Virus record (IMG/VR): IMGVR_UViG_3300014059_000004
From: a virus
Strand: one strand, 5' to 3'
DNA length: 64,000 bases
Shown here: in pieces, positions 7,056 through 23,356 of the stretch
How positions within the stretch are numbered: the stretch's first letter is position 1
Layout: each line of letters starts with the position of its first letter
Position numbers and translations under genes: made by a program
The notes under the pieces: generated by a model
What the model saw: the letters and a program-made list of their open reading frames with translations, nothing else
Told to the model about the DNA's origin: nothing
Database searches by the model: none

Positions 7056-8266
7056 AATTTTTCGTACCTGCAGTTGGTTACCAGATCGTCCTCGCTGCTG
7101 ATTGGAACTTCTCGCTCTACCTCGAAGACAGGAACGACACGTGCCTGAAGCTCTTGGCGCCCAAAGTCTACGAGGATGTGAAAAGCAACTGGCACAATCG
7201 TTCCAAATCCGGAAAGGGCTGGCCGCTCGATTACAAGCACGAGTCTGTGATGCTGCCGAAAGGCACGAAGCTGGAGATCGATCGAGTTTACGTTCGAACT
7301 GCGAACAAGGCCAAGGAAGGATCTGACAACTACGATTCCATCACGTTCAAAGTTGTTGGCGAAAAATCGAAAGTTCGCTTCTGGGCGAAGCTCGAAGACG
7401 TCAACAACATCGAGTACGAGCTCCCAGACAACTTCACTGCAGGCAAAGAAGCTGCAGTGAAGGCAGCGAAGGCACCCAAGAAGCTGACGCTTAAGGATAT
7501 CACAACAACCATCGATGGCGCTTTGCACCTGTACGATCGGGAAGACAAGCGCAATTACCCGAAATGGTTGACAGCAACTGCGCAGGGTGAGATCAAGCAC
7601 CTGCTTGATACGTTCAATTCATTTGCAATTCCAATCAAGCGTGCCGAGAGTGAAGCTCGCCGGCAAGTTGCTGAGCGCGATGCAAAGTTGCGCTATGCAC
7701 AAGGTAACTTTCCTGCGTACTTGAAGACCACGATCAAATCTGTGGAAGAGTACGTGAAGTGGGACTTGCAGCACCGCAACTATAATCTCAGGTTGCAACC
7801 TGAGATTGATGACAAAGATCTCCGTGAAGATGCGGCTCGAGTCATCGCGTACCATCTTCTTAGTTACTACTGCGTTAGCAAGGTGCAGTTCAAGCGCAGA
7901 GCTGATGGTTCTGCAGTTCGAACGTGGTCATTTAAGGTCAGAGATAATGTTCCCACGCCGCCGAGCATCCATGCCATCGACGTGTCAAAGTATTGGTTGC
8001 AAGTCGCGGTCGATCCTACCGAGACAGAGATCGTCAGCTTCTCGTGCGGTGTGGACGGGAATCCTCCGCCAGTCGCTTTAGACCGCTCGGAGTTATCACG
8101 AGAAGCCCACGAATTAATTCGAGATAAACAAATGGTTAGTACTGTGGTATCATTTATCAGTAAATCGTGGGCTAACATCGACTGGGACAGCGTGTACTGC
8201 TGGCTCGTCGTTCCATGCACAGGAAGGATTCAAAGCAGATGTCGTTCATCAGATGGCCAGAGATAG
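7052..8266 (+). CDS. hypothetical protein (404 aa)
   Basis: GTGA coupling to upstream stop; long clean ORF. Confidence 0.55.
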   Translation: MKFFVPAVGYQIVLAADWNFSLYLEDRNDTCLKLLAPKVYEDVKSNWHNRSKSGKGWPLDYKHESVMLPKGTKLEIDRVYVRTANKAKEGSDNYDSITFKVVGEKSKVRFWAKLEDVNNIEYELPDNFTAGKEAAVKAAKAPKKLTLKDITTTIDGALHLYDREDKRNYPKWLTATAQGEIKHLLDTFNSFAIPIKRAESEARRQVAERDAKLRYAQGNFPAYLKTTIKSVEEYVKWDLQHRNYNLRLQPEIDDKDLREDAARVIAYHLLSYYCVSKVQFKRRADGSAVRTWSFKVRDNVPTPPSIHAIDVSKYWLQVAVDPTETEIVSFSCGVDGNPPPVALDRSELSREAHELIRDKQMVSTVVSFISKSWANIDWDSVYCWLVVPCTGRIQSRCRSSDGQR

Positions 8267-9237
8267 TCAACTTCCACACGCTTCGGAAGAACATCAGGAA
8301 CTACCCCCACATCGTGGGAGACGGTAACGTCACCTTCAGGCCCAAGGTGAAGCTTCATGGTGCCAATGCAGGGATCCAAGTCAGGCGAAAGGGCATCACA
8401 GTCCAGACCCGCGAGCAGTTCATCGCTCCTGGCAACGATTTTGCTGGGTTGGCAGCATGGGCTCACAGAGAATCGCAATCGTTTGTAGACACCGGTGCAG
8501 CAGTCGATAAAGTGATCTTCGGTGAATGGTGCGGACCTGGCATCAACAAGGGAACAGCATTGACGCAAGTCAGCAAGAAGTTCTTTGCTGTCTTTGCCGC
8601 TGCGACCCTAGACGCATTTGACAACGAAGAGTCGAAGCTGATCGTTGAACCTGACGAACTCGAGATGCTGGTCGCGGGCGTCCATGATGCGTACGTGCTT
8701 CCTTGGCACTCGAAGTCGTTCAACGTTAACATGTTGCACCATGCAAAAGATCTGCAACCCATCGTTGACAAGATAAACAGCGACGTTGCTGAAGTTGAGA
8801 GATGCGATCCCTGGGTAAAGTCCACGTTCCAAGTTGAGGGCGTCGGTGAAGGTCTCGTTTACTACCCACTGCCAACGACGGTGAAGACGTTCACGAACTT
8901 GGCTTTCAAGGCAAAGGGTGAAGCTCACAAGATCTTGACGCACGGAAAACCAGCGCAAGTTGATCCGGAAGTTGCCGCATCTGCAGCTGAGTTTGTCGCT
9001 CTCGTTCTGTCTGAAGCTCGCCTCGTGCAAGGTGTCGCCACGCTCGGTGGTGAATATCATCCGCGACTCACGGGACCGTTCTTGGCTTGGGTGTGCAAGG
9101 ACGTCTTCAAGGAAGCTCAAGCTGAGCTTGAAGCCAGCGGGTTGGAGTGGCACGACGTTCGTGGTCAGCTGCAAGCTGCTGCGCGTGCATGGTACTTGAA
9201 GAAGTGCAACGAAACGTTACGTCATGGTACAATCTAA
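8239..9237 (+). CDS. ATP-dependent RNA ligase, Rnl2-like (nick-sealing nucleotidyltransferase)
   Basis: Motif I KLHGAN (KxHGxN of Rnl2-type ligases), motif V-like AFKAKGEAHK; RBS aggaagga 10 nt before ATG 8239. Confidence 0.62.
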   Translation: MSFIRWPEIVNFHTLRKNIRNYPHIVGDGNVTFRPKVKLHGANAGIQVRRKGITVQTREQFIAPGNDFAGLAAWAHRESQSFVDTGAAVDKVIFGEWCGPGINKGTALTQVSKKFFAVFAAATLDAFDNEESKLIVEPDELEMLVAGVHDAYVLPWHSKSFNVNMLHHAKDLQPIVDKINSDVAEVERCDPWVKSTFQVEGVGEGLVYYPLPTTVKTFTNLAFKAKGEAHKILTHGKPAQVDPEVAASAAEFVALVLSEARLVQGVATLGGEYHPRLTGPFLAWVCKDVFKEAQAELEASGLEWHDVRGQLQAAARAWYLKKCNETLRHGTI

Positions 9238-9240
9238 GAA

Positions 9241-9412
9241 GATGCTACAACCTCACGTGGTTCTGTGCGACGGCATGAATTTTCTGCATCGAGCCCGAAG
9301 TGGATGGACAGGCGGTCCTGCGCCCGTCGTCTTCAACTTCATGAGGAACATCAGGTCTCTCGTGGAGACGCTATTCTTTGCCCCTCCAACACGGTTCGAT
9401 ATACTTAATTGA
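9241..9412 (+). pseudogene. orphan 5' fragment (about 57 codons) of the 5'-3' exonuclease gene, displaced by a homing-endonuclease insertion
   Basis: MLQPHVVLCDGMNFLHRARSGWTGGPAPVVFNFMRNIR aligns with N-terminus of the full FEN gene at 10075; ends ...DIL then stop overlapping the endonuclease ATG; GC-rich backbone-like composition. Confidence 0.6.
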
Positions 9413-10096
9413 ATGAGATATGTTTATCTGATTCAGAATCTAATCAACGGGAAAGTATATGTTGGGCAAACGAAAAATTTTTCCAATAGAAAAGCAGGAC
9501 ATTTGTATTCTGCCAAGAAAGGTGATCTTCGACCTCTTTACTGTTCCATCCGAAAATATGGTCATGAAAATTTCGAGTTTCGAATTCTAGAAGAGTGTGA
9601 TGATCATGAGTGTGATGATCGTGAAATTTATTGGATATCACATTATGATTCGTTTAACATCGATAGAGGTTATAATCTGACGCGTGGAGGAGAAGGATCT
9701 ACGGGTTGCGTTGTTTCGATAGAAACTCGTCAGAAAATGAGTGATAAACACCGCGGAAAACCTAAGTCACTAGAACATCGCCAGGCAATTTCTCGTGCAA
9801 GACTTGGTTGGGAAGGTTTGCGTGGCGCTAGAAATCCAAATTTCGGAACACATCTTACTGATCAAGCACGTAAAAAAATTAGTGAGCATGCTAAACTACG
9901 GATTGGAGTGAAAAATCCAAATTGTTCATTGACTGAAGATGATGTTAAGGGAATCAAGTATCAATTGTCAATTGGAACTAGAGTTTGTGACATTGTGAAA
10001 CTGTTCAATATTAGTCGTTCTCAAGTAAATCGGATTAAGCTTAACAAGCAATGGAAGCACGTAACAATAGAATTATGCGTCCTCATATTTGTCTAG
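9413..10096 (+). CDS. GIY-YIG homing endonuclease with NUMOD3-type DNA-binding repeats
   Basis: YVYLIQNLINGKVYVGQT...R...H GIY-YIG core; repeated ETRQKMSDKHRGK / EHRQAISRARLG / DQARKKISEHAK NUMOD-like motifs; strongly AT-rich versus flanks. Confidence 0.85.
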   Translation: MRYVYLIQNLINGKVYVGQTKNFSNRKAGHLYSAKKGDLRPLYCSIRKYGHENFEFRILEECDDHECDDREIYWISHYDSFNIDRGYNLTRGGEGSTGCVVSIETRQKMSDKHRGKPKSLEHRQAISRARLGWEGLRGARNPNFGTHLTDQARKKISEHAKLRIGVKNPNCSLTEDDVKGIKYQLSIGTRVCDIVKLFNISRSQVNRIKLNKQWKHVTIELCVLIFV

Positions 10097-11244
10097 TAGA
10101 TGGGATGAATTTTTTGCACCGGTCTAGAACTGGCTGGACAGCTGGTCCAGCTCCTGTAGTTTTTAATTTTTTTCGTAACATACGAGCACTAGTAGAAAAA
10201 CTTGATATCAGTCGCTTGTATTTCGTGCTTGAAGGCCATCCGCAAGCTCGTCACGATATCTTGCCGCAATACAAAGCGAACCGCATCGTAGAAGCCGGCA
10301 CCAAAGAGCACGATGAGATGGTGAAGTTCTTCAGCCAGGTCGACGAGATAGTCGGGTTGCTGGCTGGTTCTTTTCCGTTCTCTGTCGTGCGTCATCCTCA
10401 CCACGAGTGCGATGACACAATCTACAACCTCATCAAGCGTGGCACACGAGCCGTGAAGTGGACAGTTGTATCGAACGATTCTGACTTCACGCAGCTCCTA
10501 GATGAATTTGAGGGCGTCAGCATCTACAACCCCATGAAGAAGGCTTACGTTGAGCAAGCTCCCGCTGATTACGTTACATGGAAGGCTCTTCGTGGAGATC
10601 CAACAGACAACATCCCAAAGATCATTACGGATGGTGCTGCTACGGCGCTGATGGACGACCCGGATGCGTTGAAGGAGTTCTTCAATGATCCTGCTAATAA
10701 AGAAGCCTTTCGAAAGAACTATTCGCTCATCAAGTTCACCACGTGGTCTGACGAAGAGGCGCATGGCATGACGTCTTCGCAACCGACCAAAGATTGGGCG
10801 CCAGTCCGCTCTACGTTCGAGAAGTACGGCTTTAAGTCGCTTCTGAAAGATGAAGCTTGGGGAAAGTTCACTGCGACGTTTGATCACCTTTGGGGTGAAT
10901 ACTTACTCGTTATGAAGATCAAGCTTCGCGAGCTTAAGTCGATGATCAGAACGATTCTCACCGAGGGAATGACATCATTTGATGGCTGGAACGTCGGTGA
11001 CTGGGTGAAGTTGCCAGGCGGTGCTGTCGTTCAGATCGCTTCGTTTGAAGATACGCCGTCGACTGGTGGTAGCTACGTCACGTGCCGGACAACTGACGGC
11101 CGAGCTCAACGCGCTGACTACATGTTTGCAGACGCAGTGAAGCCAACGCCAGAAGAGATCAAGTCTTGGTCGAAGCACAAGAAATCTTCTGCTCGGCGCG
11201 AAGCTGATTACTACGCGAAGCACGGAACTCGCGGCGAATTCTGA
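10075..11244 (+). CDS. 5'-3' exonuclease / flap endonuclease (FEN, T4 RNase H / Pol I 5'-nuclease family)
   Basis: DGMNFLHR, QYKANR, ECDDTI, VVSNDSDFTQL motifs; first about 45 codons AT-rich like the endonuclease, remainder backbone-like. Confidence 0.8.
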   Translation: MRPHICLVDGMNFLHRSRTGWTAGPAPVVFNFFRNIRALVEKLDISRLYFVLEGHPQARHDILPQYKANRIVEAGTKEHDEMVKFFSQVDEIVGLLAGSFPFSVVRHPHHECDDTIYNLIKRGTRAVKWTVVSNDSDFTQLLDEFEGVSIYNPMKKAYVEQAPADYVTWKALRGDPTDNIPKIITDGAATALMDDPDALKEFFNDPANKEAFRKNYSLIKFTTWSDEEAHGMTSSQPTKDWAPVRSTFEKYGFKSLLKDEAWGKFTATFDHLWGEYLLVMKIKLRELKSMIRTILTEGMTSFDGWNVGDWVKLPGGAVVQIASFEDTPSTGGSYVTCRTTDGRAQRADYMFADAVKPTPEEIKSWSKHKKSSARREADYYAKHGTRGEF

Positions 11245-11302
11245 CGTAACTTCGGCGTCATCTCTTACCTATCAGCATGTAGCTGATCAAGGAGAGATTG
11301 AC

Positions 11303-11767
11303 ATGTCCAAGTTTCTGAAGTTTTTGGGTTACGCCTGGGCCGCGCCAGTGACGTTGTTTGGGTTGTTGTACGTTGCCCTGATGACCGCTGCGGGGTTTTA
11401 CAAATGGCACGGCGTCGAAGGAGACGCTCTTGTTTGGACTGTCAAACCCACATCACCAAGTTGGTTGATGGCGTTGTGGAAGAAGTGGGGCGGGCAAGCG
11501 ATCGGCAACGTGGTGGTGCTTAAAGTTTCACCCGTTGATCGTCCGATGGTTCTCATCCACGAGCAGAAGCACGTAGATCAAGTCATGCGGCTCGGAATCT
11601 TCCAGCCGATCATGTACGCACTGTGCTACGTAGCAATCAGAGTAGGTTGTCCTGGATCAGATCCCTACTGGTCATCACCTTTTGAGGTAGATGCAAGGCG
11701 CCATGCTGGACAGCTTGTTGACGTAGAAGGTTTGCTCAAGAAGTTGAAAGAAACTGGGAAGAGCTGA
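11303..11767 (+). CDS. membrane protein with HExxH motif (putative membrane-anchored metallopeptidase-like)
   Basis: N-terminal TM helix; LIHEQKHVDQ. Confidence 0.45.
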   Translation: MSKFLKFLGYAWAAPVTLFGLLYVALMTAAGFYKWHGVEGDALVWTVKPTSPSWLMALWKKWGGQAIGNVVVLKVSPVDRPMVLIHEQKHVDQVMRLGIFQPIMYALCYVAIRVGCPGSDPYWSSPFEVDARRHAGQLVDVEGLLKKLKETGKS

Positions 11768-11783
11768 TCAATACTTAGAGTAC

Positions 11784-12614
11784 ATGCATCAATCAGTCAT
11801 AGATGCTTTCAGCAGCTTCACGGGCCGCTTCGAAGGCGTCGTTGAGCACATGTACCTAGACGTCAAAGGCCTGGTGACGATCGCTCGGGGAAACCTGATC
11901 GATCCGATCTCTATGGCTACTTCGTTGCCATTTGAAAGGAAGTCTGGCGGGCTGGCACCGCCGGGTGAAATTGCTACAGAGTGGCACAACGTTAAAGCTA
12001 GGACAGATCTCGCGCTGAAGGGTGCTCCTTCGTTCAGGGCTATCACGGCTCTAAAGCTGTCTCAGAAATCTTGCGACGACCTGGTCAGGCGCAGGCTCCT
12101 AGAGATGGAAGCTCACGTCAAGAAGCGCTTCCCTGAGTTTGATTCATGGCCCGCAGATGCTCAGCTTGGGATCATGAGCATGTCTTGGGCTATGGGATCT
12201 GGCTTCAACTTTCCACGCTTCGAAGCCGCTGTGAAGAAGAAAGACTTCTTGACTGCAGCGGCAACGTGCAAGATGAATGAAGCAGGAAATCCCGGCTTGA
12301 AGCCTCGCAACGAGGCAAATGTAATCTTGTTCACCAACGCTGCTCGAGTTCTTGAAGAACCAGACACGTACCCCGCTATGACGCTTCACTGGCCTGACAA
12401 ACTTCCAGATCATCCTCTGATCCCAGTTGTCATCGAAGAGCCAGAGCCTGAAGTAAAAACTCAACCGTCAGTTGATATAATTGTGCCTGAGCCGCCTCCT
12501 GCACCTCTCCCAACACCAGATGCAAAAGGTTTCTTGGCGATCTTGTTCAACGCTGTCAAGTTCTTGATCTCAATGCTAACAGGGAAGAAGCTATTATGTA
12601 CGTACCAAAGCTAG
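11784..12614 (+). CDS. GH24 (T4-type) lysozyme with Pro-rich linker and C-terminal hydrophobic segment
   Basis: FEGVVEHMYLDVKGLVTIARG (E...D...TIG catalytic region) and ADAQLGIMSMSWAMGSGFNFPRFEAAVKKKDFLTAAATCKMN matching T4 lysozyme C-lobe; C-term PEPPPAPLPTP then GFLAILFNAVKFLISMLTG. Confidence 0.65.
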   Translation: MHQSVIDAFSSFTGRFEGVVEHMYLDVKGLVTIARGNLIDPISMATSLPFERKSGGLAPPGEIATEWHNVKARTDLALKGAPSFRAITALKLSQKSCDDLVRRRLLEMEAHVKKRFPEFDSWPADAQLGIMSMSWAMGSGFNFPRFEAAVKKKDFLTAAATCKMNEAGNPGLKPRNEANVILFTNAARVLEEPDTYPAMTLHWPDKLPDHPLIPVVIEEPEPEVKTQPSVDIIVPEPPPAPLPTPDAKGFLAILFNAVKFLISMLTGKKLLCTYQS

Positions 12615-13402
12615 GCGGCTGGAAAGCCGACCACGAAGATCCAGATCATGACGCAAGCAAGAACTACGTCTTTGCGGATAATATCTCTAAGTTCGCAGCT
12701 GCATCACCAGCTAGCGCTCCGCAAGAGGTCGACGGCGTCCTAGATCTGCGCCAGTGGTGCTCACCGGTCGAGGATCAGGGAGCTATAGGAAGTTGTACGG
12801 GCAACGGTGTCGTTGGGGCTCTCGAGTTTCTTCAGATCCGCAACGGCAAACCTTTCGTAGACCTGTCTAGGATGTTCGTCTACTACAATGCTCGTTTGAT
12901 GTCACGAATGCAAGATCGCGATGAGGGTGCTTACATTCACATGGCGTTCGGAACGCTGTCATCGTTGGGAACTTGTGCAGAAGAAAAGTGGCCTTATGAC
13001 ACCAGCAAGGTCTTCATTCGACCGTCTTGGGGTTCTTACAGGGACGCTTACGTCAACAAAATTGACAGCTACTATTCTATCGGTGGATCTGGTCAAGCGC
13101 AGAAAAACTACATCATCTCTGCGCTGCAAGCAAGCCATCCGATCGTCTTTGGCATGACTGTCGATAAAGATTACATGGCGTACCGCGGCGGTCCACCCGT
13201 TGCGATGCCAAAGTCCGTTAGGGCCGGCGCTGGAGGTCACTGCCAAGTGATCGTAGGCTACGATCTTGGAAGAGAGCTGTGGTTGGTTCGCAACTCTTGG
13301 GGAACTTGGTGGGGAGATGATGGTTACGCTTGGGTGCCGTTTAAGTACCTAGACGAAAGCTCTGCAAACAGCTTTTGGGTACCGTTTTTGGAGGGTACAT
13401 GA
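12596..13402 (+). CDS. papain-like cysteine peptidase (C1 family)
   Basis: DLRQWCSPVEDQGAIGSC (Q/C catalytic region), HCQVIVGYD (His), NSWGTWWGDDGY (Asn/Trp). Confidence 0.8.
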   Translation: MYVPKLGGWKADHEDPDHDASKNYVFADNISKFAAASPASAPQEVDGVLDLRQWCSPVEDQGAIGSCTGNGVVGALEFLQIRNGKPFVDLSRMFVYYNARLMSRMQDRDEGAYIHMAFGTLSSLGTCAEEKWPYDTSKVFIRPSWGSYRDAYVNKIDSYYSIGGSGQAQKNYIISALQASHPIVFGMTVDKDYMAYRGGPPVAMPKSVRAGAGGHCQVIVGYDLGRELWLVRNSWGTWWGDDGYAWVPFKYLDESSANSFWVPFLEGT

Positions 13403-13729: not shown

Positions 13730-14104
13730 ATGAAAAAATTGGGCGCAGTATCTATCCTTCTCATTACGTTGATTATTTCTGGGTGCCCTCGTGGGTCCAA
13801 CGTAACACCTCAACCGCCAGTTGTGACCGATACGGGTGACTGCCAGGCTGCATGTGATCGTCTCAACAGCTTGGGTTGCGAAGAGGGCCGTGATATCGAC
13901 ATGAAGAGGTTGTGCGCTGACACTGGTGATTGTGACTTGGGTCATGGTTGCGTAGCGAACCACTGCGTGGCAACGTGCAGCGTGTTCTGCCGTGATACGC
14001 AAGCAGCAGGCGTTTGGCTCGCTCCGTCTTGCGTCAAGAACATAACGAGCTGCGATCAGATCGAATCATGTCCACTTCCAGAACCAAAGAAGTTAAGCTT
14101 CTGA
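13730..14104 (+). CDS. Cys-rich lipoprotein
   Basis: Signal peptide with lipobox LIISGC; 14 Cys. Confidence 0.55.
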   Translation: MKKLGAVSILLITLIISGCPRGSNVTPQPPVVTDTGDCQAACDRLNSLGCEEGRDIDMKRLCADTGDCDLGHGCVANHCVATCSVFCRDTQAAGVWLAPSCVKNITSCDQIESCPLPEPKKLSF

Positions 14105-14577
14105 AGCAGCTCATCCGTGAGATGTTGACAGATCCTCGACCGCCGATAACAAACGTCGAAGTGGGTGGTTCGTTGGCAAATGACGAAGAAGACGAGACGC
14201 TCGCAGCTTTGAATGCCCCGCGAGCTGCATGCGTTCTTGTTAGGAACCCAAACGGAAAGATCTTGGCAGTCTCTAGGAAAGATGATCCAAACGATTTTGG
14301 ATTGCCGGGTGGGAAAGTGGATCCTGGTGAGGTTGAGGTTGAAGCCGCTGCAAGAGAGCTTGAAGAAGAGACTGGTTACACTGCTGTAAATCTAACAAAA
14401 GTGTTCTCGCAGAAAGATGATGCTGGTTACTTCGTGACGACTTACTCTTGCTCAGTCATGGGTAACGTTGACACTGATGAATCTGGTGTGGTGAAGTGGG
14501 TTGAACCCGCTGTTCTCCTGCAAGGATCTTTCAGCGACTACAATCGAAAGCTGTTCAAGAGGGTGGGAATCCTATGA
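14068..14577 (+). CDS. Nudix hydrolase
   Basis: Nudix box GLPGGKVDPGEVEVEAAARELEEETG. Confidence 0.75.
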   Translation: MSTSRTKEVKLLKQLIREMLTDPRPPITNVEVGGSLANDEEDETLAALNAPRAACVLVRNPNGKILAVSRKDDPNDFGLPGGKVDPGEVEVEAAARELEEETGYTAVNLTKVFSQKDDAGYFVTTYSCSVMGNVDTDESGVVKWVEPAVLLQGSFSDYNRKLFKRVGIL

Positions 14578-21410: not shown

Positions 21411-21734
21411 ATGAGAATTAAGATGGCAACTAGAACACCTTCTAAGGGATCACTCACGGACGGTACTGAATTCCAGCTGCACAAATCTCAATTGATGTTG
21501 TTCAGCGGGATCATGAGCAAGGTGATTGATTTCACTGAACACAAGCTTCTGAAGTGCATTGATTCGGTTGATGACGTGCAGCAGAAAGTAGTGTTGAAAG
21601 ATCTCCTTGACAAGTACAGAAAAGGCACAGTTGCGGTATCATGGCGAAAAGGCCGACCGGTTCAACTACCAGTGACTAAGGAAAAGTTACTTCTGAACAC
21701 TGCGTCAGATTGTGGTAAAATGAAGGTACCATGA
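21411..21734 (+). CDS. hypothetical protein upstream of chaperonin
   Basis: 107 aa; no GroES mobile-loop signature. Confidence 0.45.
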   Translation: MRIKMATRTPSKGSLTDGTEFQLHKSQLMLFSGIMSKVIDFTEHKLLKCIDSVDDVQQKVVLKDLLDKYRKGTVAVSWRKGRPVQLPVTKEKLLLNTASDCGKMKVP

Positions 21735-23356
21735 TCAATGACGTCGAGACACACAACATTACGAAAGTTTTCTTCAAGAACGACGCGAGGCGTAGACTCT
21801 ATCGAGGAATAGAGTGCACAGCTGAAAGCGTTGCATGCACGCTGGGACCGAAAAGAAAGACAGTCGTCATCCAGAAGAAAGATGGACCGCCAGTTGTCAC
21901 CAAGGACGGCGTTACGGTTTCAAAGTCAGTCAGGCCCAAAGATCCAGTTGAAAGGATGGGAGCAGATCTGATCAGGGAGGCAGCATCACAGACGAACGAG
22001 GTTGCTGGTGATGGCACAACGACAGCAACGGTGTTGACTTACGCTCTAGTCAAGGGTGGGTTGAAGTACCTTGAAGCAGGGTTTGAAGCAAAAGAGCTGT
22101 GCGAAGGGATGGAACGAGCTCGAGTGCTAGTCGATGAATACCTTGTGAAATCTGCTAAGAAGCTGACGACCAAAGAAGAGATCGCTCAGGTCGGCACGAT
22201 CTCTGCGAACGGCGACGGTCGCATCGGCAACCTCATCGCTGATGCGATGGAGAAGGTCGGATCTGACGGCATCATCACCGTTGAGGATGCAAAAGGAATG
22301 GAGACAACGCTTGAAACTGTCGAAGGTATGCAGTTCGAGCGTGGTTACTTGAGCCCTTACTTCGTCACCAACCAAGAACGAATGAATGTCACTTACAATG
22401 ATGCTCGCGTTCTTGTCACTGACAAGAAACTATCATCGCTGAGCGAGCTGATTCCTCTGCTTGAGAAAGTCGTAAGATCCCAGTCAAAGCTGCTCATCAT
22501 TGCCGAAGATGTTGATGGTGAAGCGATGCAAGGACTGGTCGTCAACCGCGTCAATGCGAACCTAGCAGTCGTTGCTGTCAAAGCACCGGGTTACGGAAAA
22601 CACAAGGATGAACTGCTTCACGATATCGCAGTTCTTACTGGTACGACAGTTGTGTCGCCAGCTGCTGGATTGAAGATCGAGAAGCTTGAGCTCAACGATC
22701 TTGGTACTGTCAAGAAGGTCGTCGTTGATGCTAAGTCGACAACGTTGGTCGGAGCTGGCGCATCTCGGCCCGCTGTTGACGCTCACGTTGCAAATCTTAG
22801 GACGCAGCTCGAAGACGTGACGCTAACAACTGATGAAGTGACAAAGTTGAAGGTGCGCATCGCGCGGCTTGCTTCTGGCGTTGCTGTCATCAAGGTCGGA
22901 GGCTCAACTGAGCTTGAGATGATTGAGAAGAAGTATCGCATCGAAGATGCTCTGAACGCAACGCGAGCAGCGGTCGCCGAGGGCATCGTAGCTGGCGGCG
23001 GAACTGCATTCTTCAATGCCACGTGGATGGTTGACGTGCCTCAAGATGATGTTGGTGCAAAGCTTGTCATGACATCAATCCTAGCACCCTTGCAGACGAT
23101 CGTTTCGAATGCCGGAAAGTCACATGAAGTCGTCATCAACAATCTACGAAGTGGAATGATCAAGTCAGACATCCAGTTTCGTGGTTACGACGCTGCAAGC
23201 GACAGAGAAGTTGACATGTTTGCTCATGGCATCATCGATCCAGTGAAAGTTTCCAGGACGGCTTTGAAGAACGCAGTTTCAGTAGCAATCACATTTTTGT
23301 CTATCGGCGCAGTGATAGTTGAAGACACCAAGGATAGTGAAAAAGATGATCAATGA
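21731..23356 (+). CDS. groL: GroEL/Hsp60-type chaperonin
   Basis: TLGPKRKTVV, AGDGTTTATVL, equatorial/apical signature regions, GGGTAF near C-term; ATGA coupling. Confidence 0.9.
   Translation: MINDVETHNITKVFFKNDARRRLYRGIECTAESVACTLGPKRKTVVIQKKDGPPVVTKDGVTVSKSVRPKDPVERMGADLIREAASQTNEVAGDGTTTATVLTYALVKGGLKYLEAGFEAKELCEGMERARVLVDEYLVKSAKKLTTKEEIAQVGTISANGDGRIGNLIADAMEKVGSDGIITVEDAKGMETTLETVEGMQFERGYLSPYFVTNQERMNVTYNDARVLVTDKKLSSLSELIPLLEKVVRSQSKLLIIAEDVDGEAMQGLVVNRVNANLAVVAVKAPGYGKHKDELLHDIAVLTGTTVVSPAAGLKIEKLELNDLGTVKKVVVDAKSTTLVGAGASRPAVDAHVANLRTQLEDVTLTTDEVTKLKVRIARLASGVAVIKVGGSTELEMIEKKYRIEDALNATRAAVAEGIVAGGGTAFFNATWMVDVPQDDVGAKLVMTSILAPLQTIVSNAGKSHEVVINNLRSGMIKSDIQFRGYDAASDREVDMFAHGIIDPVKVSRTALKNAVSVAITFLSIGAVIVEDTKDSEKDDQ

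Follow-up and report, generated by a model that had tools for sequence, protein, structure and literature searches.

The window analyzed here is a 64,000-nucleotide (nt) stretch of IMG/VR virus record IMGVR_UViG_3300014059_000004. It contains a gene for a flap endonuclease (FEN, a 5'-3' exonuclease) whose 5' end is present twice, with a GIY-YIG endonuclease gene between the two copies. Very probably, a free-standing GIY-YIG homing endonuclease gene (HEG) specialized on the 5' region of phage FEN genes homed into this gene at codon ~51–54, just upstream of the YFVLEG motif. It would have entered as an 839-nt cassette carrying replacement FEN codons 1–54, with native codons 1–50 left behind as an orphan. 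An earlier note, made from the sequence alone, had described the locus as a FEN gene invaded by a homing endonuclease. Its observation is partly confirmed here, and its interpretation is supported.

Filled and empty alleles define the cassette

Close relatives of the window were recovered by FEN protein search and contig look-ups, with flanks of 93–98% nucleotide identity. The site is polymorphic among them, being filled in the window, L001, L006, and L096–L105 and empty in L002–L005. L002 and L003 have no endonuclease, and their RNA ligase gene is followed by a single uninterrupted FEN gene (protein P0003). The 5' end of the L002 gene matches the short open reading frame (ORF) of the window without mismatch from 9224 to 9372, and the first mismatch is at 9373. 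The full FEN gene of the window has 40 differences from L002 in 10101–10211 and afterwards only scattered backbone polymorphism, which resumes at 10216. Because the first and last mismatches in these filled-versus-empty alignments fall at 9373 and 10211, the insert is 9373–10211, and its FEN copy runs in frame into native codon 55. The upstream fragment is the recipient's original FEN 5' end, as the earlier note had proposed, since the single FEN gene of L002 and L003 has an identical 5' end. Native FEN ends after LVETL (codon 50), with the C and T of Leu codon 51 still native, and ~9 nt of native sequence, CGAACCGAC, are present in neither FEN copy of the filled allele. The locus has the following features.

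8215..9237, plus strand: RNA-ligase-like gene, the upstream neighbor (Pfam PF09414, E = 1.5e-12)
9224..9412, plus strand: 62-codon ORF, the orphan segment with read-through into the cassette leader (ORF list; internal ATG at 9244)
9224..9372, plus strand: orphan native FEN 5' segment, codons 1–50 plus two bases (zero mismatches to L002)
9275..9283, plus strand: ATGAATTTT, orphan copy of the longest exact block common to both FEN copies (sequence comparison)
9373..10211, plus strand: mobile cassette of 839 nt, comprising leader, endonuclease gene, and foreign FEN codons 1–54 (absent from L002–L005)
9373..9412, plus strand: cassette leader, 40 nt (sigma-70-like box, promoter scan)
9413..10096, plus strand: free-standing GIY-YIG homing endonuclease gene, 227 amino acids (aa) (Pfam GIY-YIG and NUMOD3)
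10051..10211, plus strand: foreign ("recoded") FEN codons 1–54, with a GC content at third codon positions (GC3) of 0.23 (last mismatch to L002 at 10211)
10051..11244, plus strand: working chimeric FEN (5'-3' exonuclease) gene, 397 codons (PF02739, E = 1.2e-16; alternative start ATG at 10076)
10105..10113, plus strand: ATGAATTTT, partner block in the foreign FEN copy (sequence comparison)
10212..11244, plus strand: backbone (native) part of FEN, GC3 ~0.60 (collinear with L002)

The two FEN N-termini reported in the earlier note are homologous by BLASTP (32 of 48 residues identical between the 51 residues of the short ORF and the N-terminus of the full protein, E = 9e-26). They align at 62.7% nucleotide identity, and an AT-rich GIY-YIG gene (GC content 0.376) does lie between them. 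Other details of that description had to be redrawn. The fragment is GC-richer, as stated (GC3 0.63), but had been given as 57 codons at 9241–9412; the ORF has 62 codons at 9224–9412, and only 9224–9372 is FEN. It was said to end between DIL and PQYKANR of the active-site region, but ends after LVETL, ~20 codons upstream, and its tail, FFAPPTRFDILN, is the translated 40-nt leader. Its stop codon (TGA, 9410–9412) was said to overlap the endonuclease ATG and instead directly abuts it. The full FEN gene does begin AT-rich and continue as backbone (GC3 0.23 vs 0.60), with the foreign part reaching ~54 codons to 10211 rather than ~45 codons to ~10230. A complete FEN gene is present, as claimed, but does not wait for the endonuclease gene to end; the two overlap by 46 nt (10051–10096) in different frames. 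The junction placed at a catalytic motif is not at DIL/PQYKANR but just upstream of YFVLEG, which is strongly conserved across FEN-family N-termini. If other 5' nucleases are a guide, its Glu is probably the second of the acidic residues that bind metal.

The RNA ligase gene ends just inside the native FEN/orphan ORF, its stop overlapping the ORF start, and the same overlap is found in L002, L004, and L005. The FEN ORF at 10051–11244 is complete without splicing, and its 5_3_exonuc_N domain (PF02739) scores above the gathering cutoff; the C-terminal 5_3_exonuc (SAM-fold) domain is below the Pfam cutoff in this allele. Because the cassette FEN copy joins in frame with recipient codon 55 onward, the chimeric gene is predicted to be functional without splicing.

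The cassette is foreign in composition and has spread recently

GC3 is low in the foreign FEN copy (0.23) and the endonuclease gene (0.28) and much higher in the orphan (0.63) and in the rest of FEN with the RNA ligase gene (0.60). By these values, the foreign copy belongs with the endonuclease and the orphan with the backbone. Over 42 aligned codons, the orphan and the foreign copy have 8 identical codons, 24 synonymous-only differences, and 10 amino-acid changes. The GC content of the endonuclease gene is well below that of the window (0.51). Across ~9370 to 10210, local GC content drops from ~0.55 to 0.31–0.40 and then returns to ~0.52, and this is the sole strongly AT-rich island within the 64-kb window.

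A diversity alignment was constructed with the window and ten endonuclease-bearing contigs, all from different samples (11 in total). Variable sites number 245 in 3684 nt, with 243 in the 2845 nt of flanks and two (9398 and 9901) in the 839-nt cassette. Variability is ~8.5% in the flanks and falls to 2/839 exactly at the cassette borders, the nearest variable sites being 9328 and 10216. Compared with L006, the flanks of the window differ by 7.4%, and the cassette has one difference where 62 are expected (Poisson P = 7.5e-26). The cassette is thus nearly invariant over backbones that differ by 2–7%. An identical endonuclease protein is found on at least 22 contigs, and the ORF is intact in every copy. 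This division of variable sites, 243 in the flanks against two in the cassette, shows that the cassette moved horizontally, and recently, across diverged backbones. The foreign FEN 5' tract arrived together with the endonuclease, because the two have the same codon composition and travel as one near-invariant 839-nt block.

The earlier note had attributed the foreign tract to marker co-conversion alongside the endonuclease. Shared composition and the 839-nt block bear out donor-derived flanking sequence, but simple co-conversion would replace recipient sequence and not duplicate it. The mobile unit is an insertion-type cassette carrying a replacement 5' gene end.

An alternative is a single founding illegitimate (one-sided) insertion with no ongoing homing, in which the endonuclease may be inactive and general phage recombination shuffles the flanks. 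All 11 filled contigs have identical junctions, as this would have it; T4 intron homing provides a documented case of one-sided illegitimate repair of a double-strand break (PMC2988022), and cleavage by the endonuclease is only predicted. Neutral shuffling does not, however, predict a fall in diversity placed exactly at the cassette borders. The endonuclease ORF is also intact in all copies, with invariant columns that include candidate catalytic positions, and the same layout occurs again in the L007 lineage with an endonuclease that is 61% identical. We consider a single accident of this kind unlikely.

The orphan of L006 also speaks for homing of the cassette. It differs from that of the window at five third codon positions, each change being synonymous, as would be expected of changes acquired before the segment was cut off from a working FEN gene. 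Either the cassette entered a different functional native allele or it recombined inside the orphan, with the FEN 5' region as left homology arm.

The cassette leader carries a promoter-like box

The leader has a TTGCCC box (9378–9383), a 16-nt spacer, and TATACT (9400–9405) 7 nt before the endonuclease ATG. The promoter scan picked out this site, and no Shine-Dalgarno sequence precedes the ATG. A homologous box, TTGACC-N16-TATAC(A/T)-N6-8-ATG, precedes the endonuclease gene in L007, L008, L009, and L015, and the CGATATAC box is kept upstream of all five homologous endonuclease genes regardless of the sequence further upstream. This suggests a leaderless endonuclease transcript and a promoter-like box that travels inside the mobile cassette. 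MAFFT can force a gapped alignment of the fragment tail "FDIL" to the FEN DIL motif. That assignment was rejected, as the CGATATAC box is conserved before all homologous endonuclease genes, and the resemblance to DIL arises from the CGATATAC part of the leader box.

The upstream fragment might instead be kept because it is useful, as a small FEN-derived peptide or as an upstream ORF that feeds ribosomes to the endonuclease by translational coupling. The 62-codon ORF has its native start context and is intact in 11 of 11 endonuclease-bearing contigs of the alignment, its stop abuts an endonuclease ATG that has no Shine-Dalgarno sequence, and all five substitutions in the L006 orphan are synonymous. 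The synonymous pattern is equally explained if these differences predate the insertion, however, and with its fifty residues the fragment has just the first of the acidic motifs of a nuclease domain ~160 residues long. The L007 orphan ORF ends ~50 nt before the endonuclease ATG, and no orphan at all is present in L008, L009, L015, and L017, whereas the promoter-like box with leaderless-type spacing is conserved before the endonuclease in all lineages. Translational coupling was rejected as a general feature because it is not conserved in L007, and a useful fragment in either form seems quite improbable.

An endonuclease-less allele retains the recoded site

L004 and L005 (protein P0004) are endonuclease-less with a single FEN gene, which switches at ATGAATTTT from native to cassette-type sequence, the latter reaching to the position of 10211. 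Their flanks are closest to those of filled L096, L099, and L100, with 11 differences in 1362 nt on the left and 0–1 in 442 nt on the right. By either route considered here, this scar allele is endonuclease-less and retains the recoded site. The simplest reading is that it was apparently made by deletion of the endonuclease through recombination at the 9-nt ATGAATTTT between the diverged repeats of a filled genome.

A clade of endonucleases is tied to FEN

The closest homologs of the endonuclease are P0122 (L007, 61% identity), P0123 (L015, 59%), P0124 (L008, 55%), P0125 (L009/L010, 55%), and that of L017 (54%). Homologs with at least 54% identity (six lineages including the window) all lie directly upstream of FEN, in contexts that are otherwise unrelated, and their stop codons are within ~30 nt of the FEN start. 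P0127 and another 78 viral GIY-YIG loci, all more distant, do not adjoin FEN. GC3 was compared for the FEN codons up to the LEG motif in the five lineages with complete data.

Window: FEN 5' GC3 0.27, endonuclease GC3 0.27
L007: FEN 5' GC3 0.33, endonuclease GC3 0.36
L008: FEN 5' GC3 0.37, endonuclease GC3 0.38
L009: FEN 5' GC3 0.63, endonuclease GC3 0.66
L017: FEN 5' GC3 0.53, endonuclease GC3 0.40

The rest of FEN has a GC3 of 0.63–0.83 in these lineages; the 5' codons are far lower in five of five and close to the endonuclease in four of five. No such dip is found in the endonuclease-less alleles L002, L014, and L106. Because the dip is present in the five endonuclease-linked lineages and in none of these alleles, the endonuclease and the first ~50 FEN codons are a recurrent mobile unit, with its right border at the same place in FEN.

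The same layout is found independently in a second filled/empty pair, L007 and L014. In L007, an orphan FEN 5' segment (MASILC...RALVE) is followed by a leader of ~76 nt, the endonuclease gene, and a chimeric FEN gene. The empty partner, L014 (protein P0041), has flanks of 93% nucleotide identity and a FEN 5' end identical to the L007 orphan. That orphan ends within ~7 nt of the junction in the window, and the foreign tract extends ~24 nt further right, to YFALEG. The FEN protein of L007 is 99.6% identical to P0041 in its C-terminal part and 75% identical in its N-terminal part, the latter being closer (80%) to another lineage. The closest match to the L007 foreign N-terminus, P0043, was rejected as donor; it is endonuclease-less and has a GC-rich 5' end.

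Outside the metagenomic relatives, a DNA search with 8200–11300 gave no match in 50,697 cultured or deposited phage records. Protein searches of cultured or deposited phage records gave at most 34% identity for endonuclease homologs and 30% for FEN, so no cultured relative is available. A pattern scan of metagenome contigs with FEN yielded no relative.

The endonuclease is free-standing and looks intact

The endonuclease has a GIY-YIG domain (PF01541, E = 5.6e-11) and a NUMOD3 domain (PF07460, E = 7.3e-8), and residues 4–90 match the I-TevI catalytic domain (1MK0, E = 1.8e-6). Columns invariant in six homologs include R26, H30, E71, and N88, which we take to have catalytic roles as in I-TevI. 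The homologs share a conserved C-terminal block (...SRSQVNRIK..QW.HV...); HTH_7 gave only a faint match, in P0123. From these residues and domains, the enzyme looks catalytically intact.

A search of 8800–10800 with 4227 Rfam families (cmscan) gave no match to a group I intron or any other RNA family at E ≤ 1. Because there is no Rfam match around the ORF and FEN is complete without splicing, the endonuclease is free-standing and not intron-encoded. The automatic ORF name assigned by JGI, "group I intron endonuclease," would favor a reading in which the upstream fragment is a true exon 1, and a related proposal has a tandem FEN 5' duplication arise first, with the endonuclease landing between the copies later. 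A group I intron around the endonuclease was rejected on the Rfam result, and the downstream FEN gene is complete by itself. As for prior duplication, the second FEN copy has the composition of the endonuclease and not of the backbone. Duplication without an endonuclease, which the earlier note had named as contrary to its interpretation, was seen in none of the genomes compared, and empty sites are single-copy. Both proposals are extremely improbable.

A proposed homing cycle

Under the preferred reading, homing of an insertion-type cassette, the endonuclease would cut endonuclease-less native FEN genes near codons 51–54, in or near the ~9 nt CGAACCGAC missing from filled alleles. In an L002-type FEN gene, the candidate cleavage region is around GAGACGCTCGAACCGACTCGCTTG, within or near GAGACGCT/CGAACCGAC/TCGC. 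Repair would then copy the cassette from a co-infecting donor, with homology beginning at the break on both sides. The donor orphan would pair with recipient codons 1–50, and donor FEN from codon 55 onward would pair with that of the recipient. Every homing event would thereby make the recipient's own 5' end the new orphan. Filled and scar alleles would be immune, their sites being interrupted or recoded. Recombination between the diverged repeats could afterwards remove the endonuclease, and a recoded, presumably resistant scar allele such as L004/L005 would remain. Because the donor's upstream gene is unrelated, founding entry into each phage lineage was probably by one-sided (illegitimate) repair, as in T4 (PMC2988022).

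Three endonuclease-less alleles (L002, L014, and L106), a small sample, have AGG...GAG..(C/T)TC...CCGAC...TTCGTG at FEN codons ~43–63. In this same small sample, CCGAC (Pro-Thr codons) is present in 3/3 endonuclease-less alleles and 0/5 endonuclease-linked alleles (window, L007, L008, L009, and L017). CCGAC and the AGG Arg codon are candidate determinants of cleavage and immunity.

Several points weigh against this account. The diversity valley has the pattern predicted by endonuclease-driven homing, but on its own it cannot separate such homing from ordinary recombination with hitch-hiking and does not prove that the endonuclease drives the spread. Conversion of a native allele from a foreign copy, with no transfer of the endonuclease, would explain the scar allele equally well. 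Between the window and L007, the left junction is shifted by ~7 nt and the leaders are 40 and ~76 nt long, so there may have been one founding event or two. L008, L009, L015, and L017 have the endonuclease-FEN unit without an orphan, which is therefore not obligatory. The donor of the AT-rich tract was not found; among the 120 best FEN matches, the foreign N-terminus occurs only in relatives of the window. Cleavage, the cut position, and the immunity of filled alleles are predictions.

More broadly, and with about even odds, the cassette may represent an unnamed class of homing element in large phages: splicing-free insertions in essential genes, kept harmless by the recoded, cleavage-immune replacement end that they carry, 5' in FEN or 3' in the NUDIX gene described below. 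The displaced end would serve as a homology arm for intron-like precision and as a repeat for later loss, seeding resistant alleles. If true, a full cycle of invasion, fixation, loss, and resistance of a homing endonuclease would be in view within one natural phage population.

Further features of FEN, other mobile elements, and phage context

The FEN gene beside the endonuclease has been given three starts by automatic callers, yielding proteins of 397, 379, and 339 aa (P0001, P0002, and P0005). The differing calls evidently reflect avoidance of overlap with the endonuclease ORF, and the 339-aa call would be without the first catalytic motif. For annotation, the warning is that a short ORF beside an endonuclease gene may represent the displaced end of a gene and that a wrong start may have been called for the neighboring gene.

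Native FEN has an inverted repeat, GTCTC-TCGTG-GAGAC, at 9355–9369, which directly adjoins the insertion point on its left side. Combined with the T-rich first bases of the cassette, the repeat has the score of a weak terminator-like hairpin, and it could be part of the endonuclease recognition region. At the other end of FEN, the window and its closest relatives have a C-terminal extension of ~120 residues (10890–11244, residues ~280–397) that is missing from nearly all other homologs (270–300 aa). A second mosaic tract occurs at 10556–10782 (residues ~170–245), where L004 and L005 are strongly diverged and have a canonical GIPGIGDK helix-hairpin-helix motif; the window has PKIITDGAATALMDD.

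In L006 and L001, a NUDIX gene houses another GIY-YIG endonuclease gene, unrelated to the FEN-linked one. The NUDIX gene of the window (14014–14577) is uninterrupted, with the empty site at ~14292–14310.

L006 9286–10113, minus strand: NUDIX-region endonuclease gene, GC content 0.355
L006 8724–10437 and L001 ~11250–12850: NUDIX locus in relatives

This cassette brings an AT-rich replacement 3' half (GC content 0.37 vs 0.49), and the native 3' half is a downstream orphan (L006 10171–10437). In its layout, the NUDIX case is the 3'-end mirror image of the FEN case and the direct equivalent of the mitochondrial gene hybrids discussed below.

An insertion of ~1.2 kb with a Pfam Intein_splicing match is found in a peptidase-C1-like gene of L002 (7543–9525) and L001 (~8728–9925). 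The intein is absent from the window (site 12778–12799), L004, and L006, and 22 nt at the site are unalignable, possibly as recoded extein flanks.

The source of the window is a large (jumbo-class) uncultured phage, because it encodes a GroEL-type chaperonin and AAA ATPases and because a FEN protein (P0002) identical over 95% of that of the window lies on a 313,755-bp JGI contig.

21731–23356: GroEL-type chaperonin gene (phrog_5725, E = 1.4e-143)

One paper, on aquatic jumbo "moraphages" (PMC12619734), was considered as a possible account of the FEN-cassette lineage and contained nothing relevant to it.

Comparison with known systems

The locus shows cleanly, in a natural example, how a free-standing endonuclease can reside in an essential phage gene that has neither intron nor intein and is not split; public metagenomes contain its empty, filled, and scar alleles and reveal its exact borders. 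It also accounts for one source of the abrupt mosaic borders and short stretches of foreign sequence found in phage replication genes, and the native and recoded FEN sites provide a defined candidate target for a new GIY-YIG specificity. The literature searched held no phage description of this orphan-cassette-replacement architecture, although coverage was incomplete and such absence is weak evidence.

Among phage systems, T-even SegB, SegE, SegF, and SegG are free-standing GIY-YIG endonucleases known for "intronless homing," co-conversion, and marker exclusion (PMC2988022). The FEN cassette resembles them in having a free-standing GIY-YIG gene beside its presumed target, co-inherited flanking donor sequence, presence/absence polymorphism, and a composition that is AT-rich relative to the host genome. 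In Seg homing, however, the stretch of recipient sequence from the cut to the endonuclease gene is replaced and no second copy results, whereas at FEN the recipient segment survives as an orphan and the insert behaves like an intron-type insertion, homology beginning at the break on both sides. The T4 review (PMC2988022) mentions split genes and illegitimate one-sided repair and contains no word beginning with "duplicat." I-TevI, of the T4 td intron, is similar in its GIY-YIG domain (aligned over residues 4–90) and in its modular arrangement of an N-terminal nuclease, NUMOD3, and C-terminal DNA-binding-type regions. Unlike I-TevI, the FEN-linked endonuclease is not intron-encoded, and the two have low sequence identity and different predicted targets. 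Endonucleases also split phage genes, as with mobE in Aeh1 nrdA, mobA in the T4 topoisomerase gene, and seg in phage 25 gene 43 (PMC2988022). These likewise place an endonuclease inside a conserved DNA-metabolism coding region with no intron or intein, but they yield two polypeptides that reassemble, while FEN stays in one piece through the replacement end of the cassette.

The closest architecture is that of fungal mitochondrial gene hybrids. In Glomus atp6, atp9, cox2, and nad3, a foreign C-terminal end came into the gene with an endonuclease ORF, and the original end has been displaced to a downstream position (Beaudet et al. 2013, PMC3630166). That original end matches relatives exactly, and the inserted end has ~60–65% (about 63%) identical nucleotides with many synonymous changes (PMC3630166). 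Partial atp6 and cob duplications beside homing endonuclease genes are found in Endoconidiophora (PMC6279837). The FEN locus shares with the hybrids an endonuclease ORF in a protein gene, a divergent foreign terminal copy that takes over (here 62.7% identical), and a native end kept as an orphan or unexpressed copy identical to insert-less relatives (here zero mismatches). As in the hybrids, the chimeric end is predicted to be the expressed one. A mobile-ORF gene hybrid has reportedly also been described in atp6 of Allomyces macrogynus, by Paquin and colleagues (Paquin et al. 1994).

The FEN cassette differs from the mitochondrial hybrids in its phage host and in replacing the 5' end, so that the cassette must supply a start codon. 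In the hybrids, the 3' end is replaced and the endonuclease is often fused, whereas the phage endonuclease is not fused in frame to FEN and appears to have its own promoter-like box. The phage population data, in addition, show empty, filled, and scar alleles together. The FEN cassette is thus the phage counterpart of the mitochondrial gene hybrids, linking them to phage endonuclease biology and adding a version in which the 5' end is exchanged.

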